Shown here one piece after another: positions 8,547 through 59,972 of a stretch of DNA of 64,000 bases; positions within the stretch are counted from its first letter, which is position 1; every line of letters begins with the position of its first letter. The position numbers and the translations under genes were made by a program. Source of the DNA: Eledone cirrhosa (taxonomy: Eukaryota). The notes under the pieces were generated by a model that saw only the letters and a program-made list of their open reading frames with translations, searched no databases and was not told the origin of the DNA. The stretch is taken from positions 16,182,001 to 16,246,000 of the forward strand of contig OZ024755.1 in NCBI GenBank assembly GCA_964016885.1, written 5' to 3'.

Positions 8547-8598
8547 TAGTCTAACAAAGTTCTTTCGCTGCATATCTGCAACATCATCAGTGGTACTA
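8547..8598 (-). ncRNA. Type I hammerhead ribozyme motif, family A
   Basis: tagtacca-CTGATGA-t-gttgca-gata-tgcagc-GAAA-gaacTT-tgttagacta. Confidence 0.75.
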
Positions 8599-9034
8599 TT
8601 ATGTTCCTCCTGTTGTATTGTATCTACGCCATTTTTATTTTATCTGTTTATAAATAAATAAATAAATATATACACACGCACAATAACAACAAGCACATAT
8701 AAACACACACTAGTAAACTAAGATAGAATACAATAATCAAAACACAGTCACCCAAACATTTTTATACTTGGGGAGGGTCATATTGTTGTAATAATATTGC
8801 CAGAAATAATAACAGAACACACTCACTGTTTGGTTGGTTTTCGCTTCTGTATCTTTTATATCTCTACAATTAATTTATTTGGTCCTCAATGTTTATCATT
8901 GATTGACCAACGGTCAAAAATATAGATATAATATAGATATAAACACATATATATAGTCAGAGAAGAAGACATAAATAAATAAATAGATAAAATAAAAATG
9001 GCGTAGACATACAATACAACAGGAGGAAACATAA

Positions 9035-9085
9035 TAGTACCACTGATGATGTTGCAGATGTGCAACGAAGAACTTTGTTAGACTA
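9035..9085 (+). ncRNA. Hammerhead motif, family A, with one A deleted from GAAA
   Basis: CTGATGA-t-gttgca-gatg-tgcaac-GAA-gaacttt. Confidence 0.6.
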
Positions 9086-9537
9086 TATATATGTATTTAT
9101 ATCTGTATTTTTGACCGTTGGTCAGTCAATGATAAACATTGAGGACCAAATTAATTAACTGAGGAGATATAAAAGCTACAGAAGCGAAAACCAACCAAAC
9201 AGTGAGTGTGTTCTGTTATTATTTCTGGCAATATTTGTTTCGGCACACGATTTCATATCAAAAACCTCGCAAAACAAATATATATATATATAGATGTAGA
9301 TAAATCTACCAAAAGTTTACGGTAGTGTCCAATCCGTATGAAGAACTCAATGTAATCCGGATATCATGAAAAGAGAAGATGCATTCAAAAACTACTTTCG
9401 GTGAAAAATAAACGGAAAACAGAGTCAAGATAAATTATTAAAAAAATAATGAATAAACAAAGATCTTTGTTTATTCATTATTTTTTTAATAATTTATATA
9501 TATATATATATATATATATATATATACACAATATATT

Positions 9538-9725
9538 AATTGTTTCTACTTTAGGCACAAGGCCAGCAATTACCCAGTGCATTACTGGTACTTTATTTTA
9601 TCGACCCCGTAAGGATGAAAGGCAAAGTCAACCTCGGCGGGATTTGAACTCAGATCGTAAAGGGACGTAACTATGCTGGAAAGCATGGCGTCCGACCCTC
9701 TACCGATACTGCCAATCCACCGCCC
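9538..9725 (-). mobile_element. Full-length Meta-like SINE
   Basis: Complete head-core-tail match to the family on the minus strand. Confidence 0.88.
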
Positions 9726-9728
9726 TTA

Positions 9729-10097
9729 TATACAATATATTAATAAATGGAACTATATTTATAAAACCATATTTATTTATTTTATTATACATATTTCAAG
9801 GTAAATTATGGTGCGCTTTCATCAGATAAAATACAGATTTGTTTTATAAATAAATATTGACATACTCGGAAAAAAAGACAACCTTAACGGTTGGAGCTTC
9901 CTGATGAAAGCGCACCATAATTTGCCTTGGTGGCCCTTGAAATATGTATAATAAAATAAATATGGTTTTATAAATATAGTTTCCATTTGTTAATATATTG
10001 TGTATTTACTCCACTACTCTGTTGAGTGCTTTATATCAGTTATAACATTTTTTAAGCTTGTTGAATCCCAAGAAATTAAATATAACCTCTGCATATA
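9729..10097. mobile_element. Family B fold-back element with two inverted hammerhead motifs
   Basis: 9729-9825 is an inverted copy of 9901-10005. Plus strand has CTGATGA at 9901 ... GAAA-tatgta-TA-ataaaata. Minus copy has tattttat-CTGATGA with a deletion in stem II. Confidence 0.8.
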
Positions 10098-10252
10098 TAG
10101 TGTGTGAGGGGGTGGGGGCAGAGAGAGAGGGGTCAGAGAGAGAGAGAGGGCAGAGAGAGAGGGGGCAGAGAGAGAGAGAGGGGGGTCAGAGAGAGGGGGA
10201 CGGGGGGGGCAGAGAGAGAGAGATAGAGAAAGAGAGAGAAAGAGTGAGAAAG

Positions 10253-10332
10253 GACTTCTACAAGTCTAGGACTGTTTCATTCGTATGAAATCATCAGGAT
10301 ACGAATGAACTAGTTCCAGTCCTGTAGAAGTC
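10253..10332 (-). ncRNA. Hammerhead motif inside a small inverted repeat (family C)
   Basis: Minus strand of 10266-10300 reads CTGATGA-t-ttc-atac-gaa-t-GAAA-cag-TC; outer arms gacttctaca/tgtagaagtc. Confidence 0.6.
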
Positions 10333-56742: not shown

Positions 56743-56834
56743 ATATATATATATATATATATATATATATATATATATATAGAACTCACAACCTCTAACC
56801 TAAAACGATAACTTATCCCATATATATATATATA

Positions 56835-56918
56835 TACTGGGTGTCCCCCAAAATATTTATACGCCCTTTAACAGCATTATAATAAAAGTGTGTATACATT
56901 TTTGGGGGACACCCTGTA
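56835..56918. mobile_element. Tiny Tc1/mariner-type MITE
   Basis: TA-ctgggtgtcccccaaaa ... ttttgggggacaccctg-TA. Confidence 0.78.
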
Positions 56919-58369
56919 TATGTATATATATGTATAGACCATTAACGACTGACCGAATCGTAGAGGCGCTGTCGTGACATACGGTATGTCTTGTGCATTT
57001 TAAGCATGCCAGAGCTAATCCCCTTTCCAGGTCTCATCACAGCCGAGAGAGAAAGGAAGAATCCGCCCCCCAGTATTGTAATGGTATATTTTTTAACGAC
57101 CTCGAAAGGATAAAAAACAAAGTTGACCTCGGCGGGATTAAAGTACTGGGGTCGTACATTATTGGACAAATTTGATAATTGTTTTTAAAAATAAATGCTC
57201 TGACGCTATAGTATGTTTGTGCAGGTGAAATGTATTTTGGCCCTTTAGAAGTTACGGCTCGAACCACTTACTTGAGATGGGATGGGGGGGGGGGGGGGGC
57301 TTCTTCTCTGACCCCTTCTGCTGTCGAGCTCTGCTGAAAGTTTCTTACCATTGTTTGTGAAATAGCCTTTTCATGAGTTATATGTTCAAATCTGCTTAAT
57401 ATTTCCGTGTATTTCTTGCCAGAACATTGCAATACAATAGCTTCCAGAATTAGGAATCAGATTATTTGGGGATGTTATGTGAGAAAGAAAGACAAGCGAC
57501 CTATCCAAGAGAACATTTGCCACATCACGTTTCAGGCCATGGAAGCCAGTGTTAAACACCAGCTCTAAGAAACCCCACGTGAACTTCCGTTCGTACTTAC
57601 GAACTCAGATATGTTTTTCTCGTTCCAAATACCGTGGGCGATAACGAGGCTGGGATCAGCTACTCCTCTCCTTCCAGTTTAGAGTAGTGGTGGTGGTGGT
57701 AGTAGTAGTAGGAGTAAGAAGAGACAAAAAAAATTTATTTAATGAAAACTCTGAGAATTCCGTGATCTTCTCATTTACCATTTCTTCTTCTTCTTCTTCT
57801 CTCATTAGCCTCTCTGTTATTTATCGTCCTCCTCCATTTGTCTGTCTGTCTTCTTATCTTCTGTCCTCTCTACCTGAAACTAGATAAGTAGTAGAGGAAG
57901 ATAACGAGATGGAAGATGGTAAAAGTAAAAAGATTCTCATATACAGGCATATTAAAATGTTCTGACTCAGTAGTTATCTCTCTCTCTCTCTCTCTCTCTC
58001 TCTCTCGCTTTTGCTCTCGGACTTTCTCTCTTTCTTTCTCTCTCCCTCTATTTCTCTTCCTCCCTTAATTCCACTTTTGCTCTCTTACCCCCCCCCTCTC
58101 TCTCTCTCACACACAGACATACACACCTAGCTCTCTAGCTCCCTCACACCTTCTCACGGTCTCTCTGTTTCTCTCTCACACCTTTTAGCTCTCTCTCTCT
58201 CATCCCATCTCTCTGTTCAACTCTATATTTGGTGATTGTGGTGGGAGAGACGAGAGGCTTTTTTTGTTTATGTTTGTGTGTGTATATATATGTGTGTGTG
58301 TGTGTGTGTGTGTGTGTGTGTGTGTGTGTGTGTGTGTGTGTGTTGAATTTCCGTCGTCTCCGACGGCGA

Positions 58370-58655
58370 GCATTCTCGTCGTTTGGTCAACGGAAAAAAG
58401 ACTGCTCGTCAAACTAACATGCAAGTGGCTGAGCAATACCCTGCCATGTGTATCCTTATTTCGTTCTCAGGGAGATTCTGCATAACACAGTGTATGACTA
58501 GCCCGACTCATGGGATTGCAGGCACAGCACATTTTTACCTGCTGAGTAGGCCGGAACGATGTGAGATAAAGCGTCTTGTTAAAGGACACAATTTGGCTCG
58601 AACTCACGACATTGCGATCGTGAGTCAAACTCCCTAACCACTAAGCCACACAGGA
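58370..58655 (-). mobile_element. CORE-like SINE family copy
   Basis: Minus strand tgtggcttagtggttagggagtttgactcacgatcgcaatgtcgtgagttcgagcc...ttgtgtcctttaacaagacgc. Confidence 0.72.
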
Positions 58656-59539
58656 GTCGCGAGTAAGGTGAGCAACACATCTATTTATCTTCTGTCTCGT
58701 TATCAAAAACTACTTGTTGTCAAACAACAACACATCCTCTAACTTAACAACACATCAATAAGAACAATACAACAATAGATCAACAACAACAACAAGATAT
58801 GCGACAAACAACACGTAAGGCGGCAACAGCAGCAACAACATAACAATAACAACAAACATATAACAACAAAAAGACATGACAAACAACAATAACGCAACAA
58901 CAAAAACAGCAACAACAATAATGGCAACAGTTTAATAAAAAATGGGAGTAACAAGACAACAATAACAACACATACAGCAACAATAACAACAATAACAAAA
59001 GTCTACAAACAATCAATCAACAAACAGCAATATCCGGATGAAGAAGAAAACAAGAATTTTAAAAAAATAACAATTTTTTTTTTTAACGAAAAGTTTTTTT
59101 AATGTTTAAAAAAATACACGAAAATAAAATAAAAATCCCTGGAAATAAAGAAAAACCAACAACAAAATGAAATAAAACAGAAATAGGAGAAAATTGAAAG
59201 CCAAGGACATACTGTGTGGTTAAGGAGTTCGTTGTAACCATAAGGTTCTAGGTTCAATCTCAGAGATAGGTCGTTAATGAGTTCATTGTTTTACGATCGT
59301 TTCAGAGAGTCGATTGATTGTGGAAGATCGATGTATTGACTAGCATGGTAGTGGGTTACGTTATTACCTATTTCTAGTCTGGAAATTCTTGTTTGATCGA
59401 CCATCTTCTTTAGAAACACACACACACACACACACTCTCTCTCTCCCTCTCTCTCTCTCTCTATATATATATATATATATATATATATATATATGTGTGT
59501 GTGTGTGTGTGTGTGTGTGTGTGTGTGTGTGTGTATAAC

Positions 59540-59728
59540 AAACAAAGTGTGGTAAGAAACCAGGTGAAACATAACGCACCAGAGTACTCGATACTTAGGG
59601 TGGGTAATAGGAAAAGAGTCAGGGCCATGACGGCTGTGCTCCGGCCTTTCAACATCTAGATCCGAACGCTCAGATTTAGCTGTCGAAACGGCCAGAGCTC
59701 AGCCGTCGAGGTCCTGACTCCTTCCCTA
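59540..59728 (-). mobile_element. Family F fold-back element, more diverged
   Basis: Same tail and hairpin; tagctgtc-GAAA-cggccagagctcagccg-TC-gaggtcc on the right arm. Confidence 0.8.
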
Positions 59729-59761
59729 TATATATATATATATATATATATATATATATAT

Positions 59762-59972
59762 AAGTAGTAACACAACAGTAAGTTCACCATACCGAGAACA
59801 ATTGTTTCACCTTATGCGGATCTTCAGCTGAGTCCGAACTGAAGATCCGCATAAGGTGAAACAATTGTTCTCGGTATGGTGAACTAACTGTTGTGTGACT
59901 ACTTCTACCAAACTCGTCCCATGGACTGAGTGCTCTACCACTACGGATATTACCTTCCAGTGTTCTACCTCG
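59762..59972 (+). mobile_element. Fold-back element with back-to-back hammerheads (family G)
   Basis: 66-bp arms 59762-59827 and 59839-59904; each reads CTGAAGA-t-cc-gcataa-gg-t-GAAA-caattg-TT-ctcgg; unique tail to 59972. Confidence 0.78.

Follow-up and report, generated by a model that had tools for sequence, protein, structure and literature searches.

The presence of hammerhead ribozymes in Penelope-like elements (PLEs) is already published, including one Octopus element: minimal motifs were described in PMC4209133, and File S2 of PMC8557442 contains hammerheads of Hydra elements, among them one Octopus bimaculoides motif, Hydra-1_Obim. Motifs with a short palindromic stem III have been reported to cut weakly and as dimers (PMC4209133; PMC6765202), the function of the hammerheads in PLEs has been described as unclear (PMC8557442), and cleavage was found to be dispensable in vitro (PMC11167929). 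A stretch of 64,000 nucleotides from Eledone cirrhosa, G000:C15:16182001-16246000 of a 2,996-Mb assembly (3.0 Gb), was analyzed here over its whole length and is called the window. An original prediction, made from the sequence alone, had read in it a dense field of hammerhead motifs and pointed to PLE pseudo-long terminal repeats (pLTRs) as their source. The analysis makes it probable that these are type I hammerheads in the pLTRs of several PLE families, present mostly as short solo or head-to-head pieces and likely copied from RNA that was uncut at the ribozyme.

Carrier elements, copy ends and the proposed copying route

All 16 hammerhead sites claimed for the window were found where they had been placed. 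They belong to seven families, A (five sites), B (three), C (one), D (two), E (one), F (two) and G (two), and decayed copies with a U3-A8 core, overlooked in the first reading, add an eighth, which bears out the claim of at least six families. The core claimed for these sites was present in its exact form (CUGANGA/GAAA/UH) in 11 of the 16 and was broken in the other five.

A PLE pLTR origin was shown for families A, B, F and G by PLE open reading frames (ORFs) located upstream on the same strand; for the remaining families the claim stood less firmly, being weak for E, with one weak GIY-YIG match (E 7.5e-6) among its loci, and without a linked ORF for C and D. In the window, the family A sites at 17929 and 22591 (site positions are given as C3 of the hammerhead core) lie 200-250 nt 3' of broken ORFs containing the end of the reverse transcriptase (RT), a cysteine linker and a GIY-YIG domain with CCHH, and a PLE ORF was found upstream of this family in 12 of 30 loci, the window locus included. 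The best protein relative of the retroelement ORF of the window came from Octopus vulgaris (58% identical). Family F is a sister of A whose ORF is 58% identical (L212, L107, L118), and a PLE ORF was located upstream in 2 of 25 loci plus L212. The aligned A and F ORFs share an RT followed by a C-terminal GIY-YIG, a CX2-5CxxC linker, VxY..YxGET and C..C..H..H, in agreement with the Neptune motif description in PMC8557442. The RT and GIY-YIG matches of the retroelement ORFs to Pfam were all below threshold, that of the L212 GIY-YIG among them (E 0.0019).

For family G, a PLE ORF was detected upstream in 7 of 25 and in 3 of 30 loci, and for family B in L269, at a distance of 1.47 kb that corresponds to the 3' untranslated region (UTR). 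The B and G ORFs have a CxCX5C linker (L269, L120, L196 and L245; L189 has DKT and RWR), lack CCHH and are associated with (TA)n targets, features that fit the Hydra clade as defined in PMC8557442. By these motifs, which are the basis of the clade names, A and F appear to be carried by Neptune-type PLEs and B and G by Hydra-type PLEs. A full-length Hydra-type PLE of about 4.7 kb, belonging to another family and flanked by two hammerhead pLTRs, extends from L189:7665 to L276:2408; its 3' UTR is AT-rich and very long, and an inverted pLTR precedes the element. Families C and E are likely to be carried by PLEs as well, and C resembles the other families in its behaviour despite having no ORF link. 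Family B is very young, many copies on different chromosomes being 100% identical over 137 nt.

The ends of the copies were mapped in 30 loci each of families C, G and B. Only sequence 3' of the cut served to choose these loci: those of C and G are the 30 exact matches met first on C1, and those of B are the 30 that scored best. The arm ends were placed against natural long copies. Only 4 of 139 arm 5' ends in these 90 loci fell within 2 nt of the cut site. The 5' ends were instead concentrated upstream, at -10..-1 from C3 in C (21/46), at -90..-71 in B (16/49) and at -30..-1 in G (21/44), and the single C and G ends located at the cut lie on stem I fold-back junctions. An ending of copies at the cut site, for which two family F copies had given a hint, was rejected on the 4/139 count. 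Inverted arms were observed in 16 (C), 14 (G) and 19 (B) of the 30 loci; they end at fixed 3' points (+67, +69, +108) and are shorter than the main arm, the difference corresponding to the tail of a PLE, and their fixed 3' ends adjoin (TA)n.

The 5' pile-up upstream of the ribozyme, together with the rarity of ends at the cut, suggests copying from RNA that is uncut or re-ligated. In the proposed route, the PLE protein would begin to reverse-transcribe some 100-140 nt 3' of the cut, pass through the uncut ribozyme and run off at the 5' end of the RNA, likely the start of pLTR transcription, and the product would be a short copy holding the whole hammerhead. The very large motif numbers could then arise because such short run-off copies retain the hammerhead entire. 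An internal promoter would allow them to be transcribed again, and the promoter of Drosophila Penelope is internal (PMC8557442). An anole element has been reported to start reverse transcription internally and, in vitro, to use mainly unprocessed RNA as its substrate (PMC11167929). Selection would maintain the ribozyme fold among amplifying families, not copy by copy.

Several observations weigh against this interpretation. No PLE ORF was found in 25 loci of family C, nor directly upstream in 8 long copies, and none in 8 loci of family D. The minimum free energy folds of the monomers gave the full hammerhead in 0 of 8 window copies, with stem II formed in several. The 5' pile-up could reflect a splice acceptor, since stem I of family C is preceded by a pyrimidine tract and CAG, or it could reflect microhomology at the junctions. 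Moreover, paired arms of the same insertion do not count as independent ends, and some loci overlap or are duplicates (L313/L314, L328/L329, L350/L351). Finally, a circular template that had been cut and re-ligated would likewise leave no ends at the cut.

This last point leads to the retrozyme route, in which the same elements would spread through ribozyme-cut, re-ligated circular RNAs and cleavage would be a working step. PMC4209133 put this route forward, PMC7229834 showed it for retrozymes, and two kinds of tandem array with one intact motif per unit speak for it: a near-identical 311-bp array of 18 units (L239/L271, G000:C7 near 37.0 Mb) and a near-identical 468-bp array with 21 motifs (L265/L272, G000:C22 near 12.0 Mb). 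Both are candidates for typical, young retrozymes. The 311-bp unit is also arrayed on C1 near 1.24 Mb. Family D, an old 158-bp tandem dimer, points in the same direction by its arrangement; both of its window cores are broken, so that it lacks the complete motif per unit of a retrozyme, and tandem arrangement was seen in none of its seven distant relatives. Family D is best described as a decayed dimer, retrozyme-like only. However, most copies are solo or inverted, and a circle offers no 5' end at which the sharp pile-up upstream of the motif could form. As a general account the retrozyme route is therefore unlikely, while the arrays may still fit it.

The hammerheads would cut the transcripts of tandem PLEs or retrozymes, as dimers where stem III is a short palindrome, and family C may cut as a monomer. 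The motifs had been taken for minimal, dimer-type ribozymes; this description does not suit all of them. Since head-to-head motifs lie on opposite strands, one transcript holds only one motif and would fold back, as the predicted fold shows for the family C copy at 10297. From their structure, most window copies are likely to be inert, and tandem PLEs and the 311- and 468-bp arrays are the expected places of activity.

Genome-wide load and stem covariation

The window has 35% G+C and many microsatellites, and chance matches in such AT-rich DNA were considered as an explanation of the motifs. Three decoys (the sequence reversed, A/T-swapped or C/G-swapped), 100 local dinucleotide shuffles of the window and a genome sample of 100 stretches of 10 kb (1 Mb, taken at fixed steps over 25 contigs) were used for comparison. 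Loose matches to the core alone do occur in the decoys, at 22-38 per Mb. When a stem II of at least 3 bp was added, the window gave 8 matches, far above the shuffles (mean 0.19, maximum 2) and against 0 in each decoy, so that the motif count survived its shuffled control. The full three-stem type I descriptor, with both the 5' and 3' ends in stem I, was passed by 7 of the 16 window sites and by none in the decoys (0/0/0). In the 1-Mb sample it gave 102 motifs against 2/1/4 (bootstrap 57-157 per Mb), or 72 (48-101) when two tandem arrays were each counted once, and at least one full motif was present in 38 of the 100 stretches. With full-descriptor matches 25- to 100-fold above the decoys, exact family patterns that have no reversed match at all and stems that covary, chance is extremely improbable.

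In the whole genome, the core pattern CTGANGA-N11-18-GAAA, which does not demand stems and leaves out the class with a long stem II, had 270,466 matches against 44,968 for the reversed pattern, an excess of 225,498. One exact long-stem-II pattern had 11,351 copies and the exact 32-nt pattern of family E had 2,922, each against 0 reversed. From this excess and the omitted long-stem-II class, the stems not being demanded, the genome is estimated to hold about 2.3-3 x 10^5 core-intact motifs, that is, about 75-100 per Mb or one per 10-13 kb. The very large and diverse genome-wide complement that had been predicted was thus confirmed; the accompanying figure of one motif per about 4 kb applies if decayed copies are included, intact copies being nearer one per 10-13 kb. 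Schistosome genomes, though much smaller, may contain canonical motifs by the tens of thousands and so approach the density of Eledone, for which reason a record hammerhead load is not established for this genome.

The window itself did not prove to be a dense field: 7 intact motifs were observed against 6.5 expected from the sample (P=0.48). With decayed copies included, it holds 17 sites (D left out) against 149 per Mb in the sample, an excess of about 1.8-fold (P=0.018), where the 149 sites were found by homology with an incomplete library and a reversed control of 0. This excess is what favours a local field of ribozymes that the host has selected for a function of their own. Such a field is nevertheless highly improbable, given that the intact density equals the genome average, that 5 of the 16 sites have a broken core and the orientations vary, and that the families are dispersed genome-wide, with denser 10-kb stretches at random places, up to the 10 motifs of L196. 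Within the sample, the four giant chromosomes were poorer in motifs, with 34 in 0.6 Mb, than the smaller ones, with 36 in 0.38 Mb when the arrays are left out. Hammerhead families nest adjacently in L045, L052, L196 and L272, each within a (TA)n run of another.

The Rfam hammerhead models gave 0 matches in the window at the gathering score, a score that does not define the type I class, since the published PLE motifs came from descriptors. At E<=10, the 150 matches listed of 671 were microRNA and snoRNA models on microsatellites.

Covariation of the stems was analyzed in the B class and in stem I of family C, and compensatory changes were found in both. In 15 chosen B-class motifs, 91% of the cells were paired, compared with 36-52% in slid controls, and both sides changed in 16 of 21 tested pairs, a value reached in 0 of 500 shuffles; these figures are support and not a probability, the sequences being related and the structure drawn from them. 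Between the subfamilies of family C, GCTTC/GAAGC in stem I is swapped for GATTC/GAATC.

One tested pair of the B class, stem II position 4, never pairs. Of 65 distinct stem II sequences, taken from motifs whose stem III is self-complementary over 8 nt and whose stem I has at least 4 bp (C·C was not a criterion), 56 had C·C at this position, 7 had C·U or U·C and 2 had another combination. At positions 1-3 and from position 5 on, the two sides vary as pairs, and some subfamilies share no stem I sequence. Another C·C family had 1,742 matches against 59 reversed. Conservation of this mismatch defines a C·C stem II subtype of family B, in which it is predicted to matter for folding. It is absent from the 56 motifs of Fig. 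S3 of PMC4209133, from File S2 of PMC8557442 and from the 60 motifs contained in 57 of the 77 Hydra-type loci of metagenome contigs (0/36 with stem II >=14 nt), a set that came from an alignment search started with another Hydra-type family and may miss the nearest outside relatives of B. A metagenome search with a single protein found nothing, and a text search of the literature for a C-C mismatch in stem II, whose coverage stopped short of Lunse et al. 2017 (dimeric PLE hammerheads), returned no report. By contrast, the U10.1·U11.1 pair of families C and G was rejected as a novelty, having been reported in PMC3088659 and in the Hydra list of PMC8557442. At the metagenome Hydra-type loci, U·U is the commonest first stem II pair (29/60).

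Sites and other repeats in the window

Among the seven sites that pass the full descriptor, one (9825) carries a deletion in stem II, and two others (10297 and 59827) borrow the 5' strand of stem I from an inversion junction; 12257+ (B), 46768- (E) and 8590-/22591+ (A) rank as the cleanest. The palindromic stem III that had been reported for most motifs is present in B, D, E and G (8 of 16 sites). In A and F, stem III (AGAACT/AGAGCT) consists of 2 bp and a 2-nt loop. The short stem III read for family C was wrong: the stem has 4 bp with an 8-nt loop, H17 is A and the cut is predicted after this A.

Family A is represented by a solo pLTR piece with an exact core at 8549..8598 on the minus strand (C3 8590, H17 8557) and by a copy at 9035..9083 (+, C3 9043) in which GAAG replaces GAAA. 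A broken Neptune-type ORF piece at 16314..17678 (+), ordered as RT end with YVDD, cysteine linker and GIY-YIG with CCHH and interrupted by an in-frame stop at 16764-16766, is followed about 250 nt downstream by a hammerhead with an exact core and a weak stem I at 17921..17970 (+, C3 17929). A second, frameshifted ORF piece at 21366..22376 (+) precedes the exact-core hammerhead at 22583..22632 (+, C3 22591). The remaining copy, at 20493..20541 (-, C3 20533), has a broken core (CTGCTGA) and forms the terminus of an inverted 5'-truncated element with an endonuclease remnant at about 20742-21141 on the minus strand. Most members of family A have a C·U mismatch at the third pair of stem I.

Two family B copies with exact cores form an inverted pair, one at 9778..9833 (-, C3 9825) with a 10-nt deletion in stem II and the other at 9901..9958 (+, C3 9901), where the 5' strand of stem I is missing at the inversion junction. 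The intact copy of this young family, at 12249..12314 (+, C3 12257, H17=A at 12306), has a stem I of 8 bp, C·C at stem II position 4 and an 8-nt self-complementary stem III. The family C copy at 10253..10299 (-, C3 10297, H17=A at 10259) is the 5'-truncated arm of a head-to-head hairpin. Both family D units are on the minus strand, unit 2 at 42966..43015 (C3 43005, CCGAAGA) and unit 1 at 43124..43173 (C3 43163, CTGATGT), and an intact minimal hammerhead of family E with an ACGT stem III is located at 46733..46776 (-, C3 46768).

In family F, a copy with a broken core (CCGAGGA) at 53459..53509 (-, C3 53501) is the inverted partner of 53641..53691 (+, C3 53649), which has an exact core and a stem I 3' strand mutated relative to the family members. 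The inverted arm of family G at 59789..59833 (-, C3 59827) has U·U at 10.1/11.1 and a ACAATTGT stem III, and its counterpart at 59831..59877 (+, C3 59839) has an exact core and an A·C mismatch at the closing pair of stem I. The U3-A8 core family has three decayed copies, one at 28659..28691 (-), 5'-truncated inside the core, and a head-to-head pair at 56468..56579 (56468-56505 minus, 56542-56579 plus) with GCAA replacing GAAA. This family (TTGAAAA, ACCGGT stem III) was also observed at L224, L242, L246 and L270.

The window, whose repeats were mapped by masked self-BLAST, also contains other retroelement pieces and repeats. A very abundant dispersed repeat, about 190-350 bp long and with an inverted symmetry inside it, in which ARAGORN detected no tRNA, has at least 15 copies in the window, at 1-304, 4693-5813, 9532-9750, 22965-23514, 39374-40355, 44100-44536, 47024-47214 and 55479-55896. 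The broken end of a non-LTR retrotransposon at 51819-52757 (+), with a zinc knuckle, a PD..D restriction-like endonuclease and a sub-threshold zf-RVT match, is presumably Dong/R4-like by its motifs. An open 256-aa piece of another retroelement at 6058-6828 (-) shows a restriction-like endonuclease motif and had no Pfam match. Two 181-bp copies, 98% identical, at 1670-1850 and 38602-38782 contain a frame that ends in a C2H2 zinc-finger-like motif and are likely a retroelement tail. Additionally, minisatellites were found at 26507-26817 (42 bp), 40381-40929 (40 bp), 13294-14586 (15 bp) and 49497-50407 (33 bp).

Implications and comparison with known systems

With thousands of young copies per family, the copy ends record which RNA was copied, and the question of the template becomes a counting problem. 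With a motif every 10 kb and both strands involved, numerous introns of the host must contain a hammerhead, so that activity is probably kept low or gated by a dimer or a protein. The C·C subtype offers a natural series for structure-function work, and descriptors that bar mismatches in stem II would overlook it. A more ambitious reading can be sketched, in which Eledone has the largest and densest hammerhead load counted, a tertiary or protein contact sets the activity of the C·C subtype, retrotransposition proceeds from uncut RNA and pLTRs spread as parasites resembling short interspersed elements; taken as a whole it is doubtful.

The minimal PLE hammerheads of PMC4209133 resemble families A, E and F in their core, in an extra nucleotide before G10.1-C11.1 and in a short palindromic stem III. 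They also occur mostly as single motifs or opposite-strand pairs 100-700 bp apart, include a U3-A8 core variant and comprise many families per genome. They differ in number, about 2,000-9,000 per genome with the descriptor of that study (about 9,000 minimal motifs in Xenopus) against 2.3-3 x 10^5 in Eledone, and their 56-motif alignment contains neither a cephalopod nor C·C at stem II position 4. The Hydra-clade PLEs of PMC8557442 share with families B and G the CxCX5C linker, the lack of CCHH and the (TA)n targets, and with C and G the U·U first stem II pair and a 3-4-bp stem III, whereas family B differs by its C·C stem II subtype, which the File S2 list lacks, and by a 3' UTR of about 1.5 kb. 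As for cephalopod repeats, a text search of an O. vulgaris repeat paper (PMC13282606) found no mention of ribozymes.

The animal non-LTR retrozymes (PMC7229834; bioRxiv 10.64898/2026.07.22.740005) consist of non-coding units, 150-470 bp long and arranged in tandem, each with a single type I motif, comparable to family D, L239 and L265. In Eledone, such motifs are a minority (32 of the 102 in the 1-Mb sample). The largest published count found is that of the axolotl, 126,247 motifs (PMC7229834), or about 4.5 per Mb from its 28.21-Gb size (bioRxiv 10.64898/2026.07.22.740005), compared with 75-100 per Mb in Eledone, and here, as in all comparisons with published counts, the descriptors differ. 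By these estimates, the scale of the Eledone load appears to exceed the counts in the literature compared. The anole Poseidon PAc (PMC11167929) is similar in its internal start of reverse transcription, which leaves a 'tail', and in having no ends at the hammerhead cut; that evidence comes from in vitro work and RNA reads on one element, while the Eledone signal is genomic and comes from three families. Therefore, relative to the literature compared, the present results are modest additions to a known association: the scale of the hammerhead load, the C·C subtype of family B and the 5' ends piled just upstream of the ribozyme.

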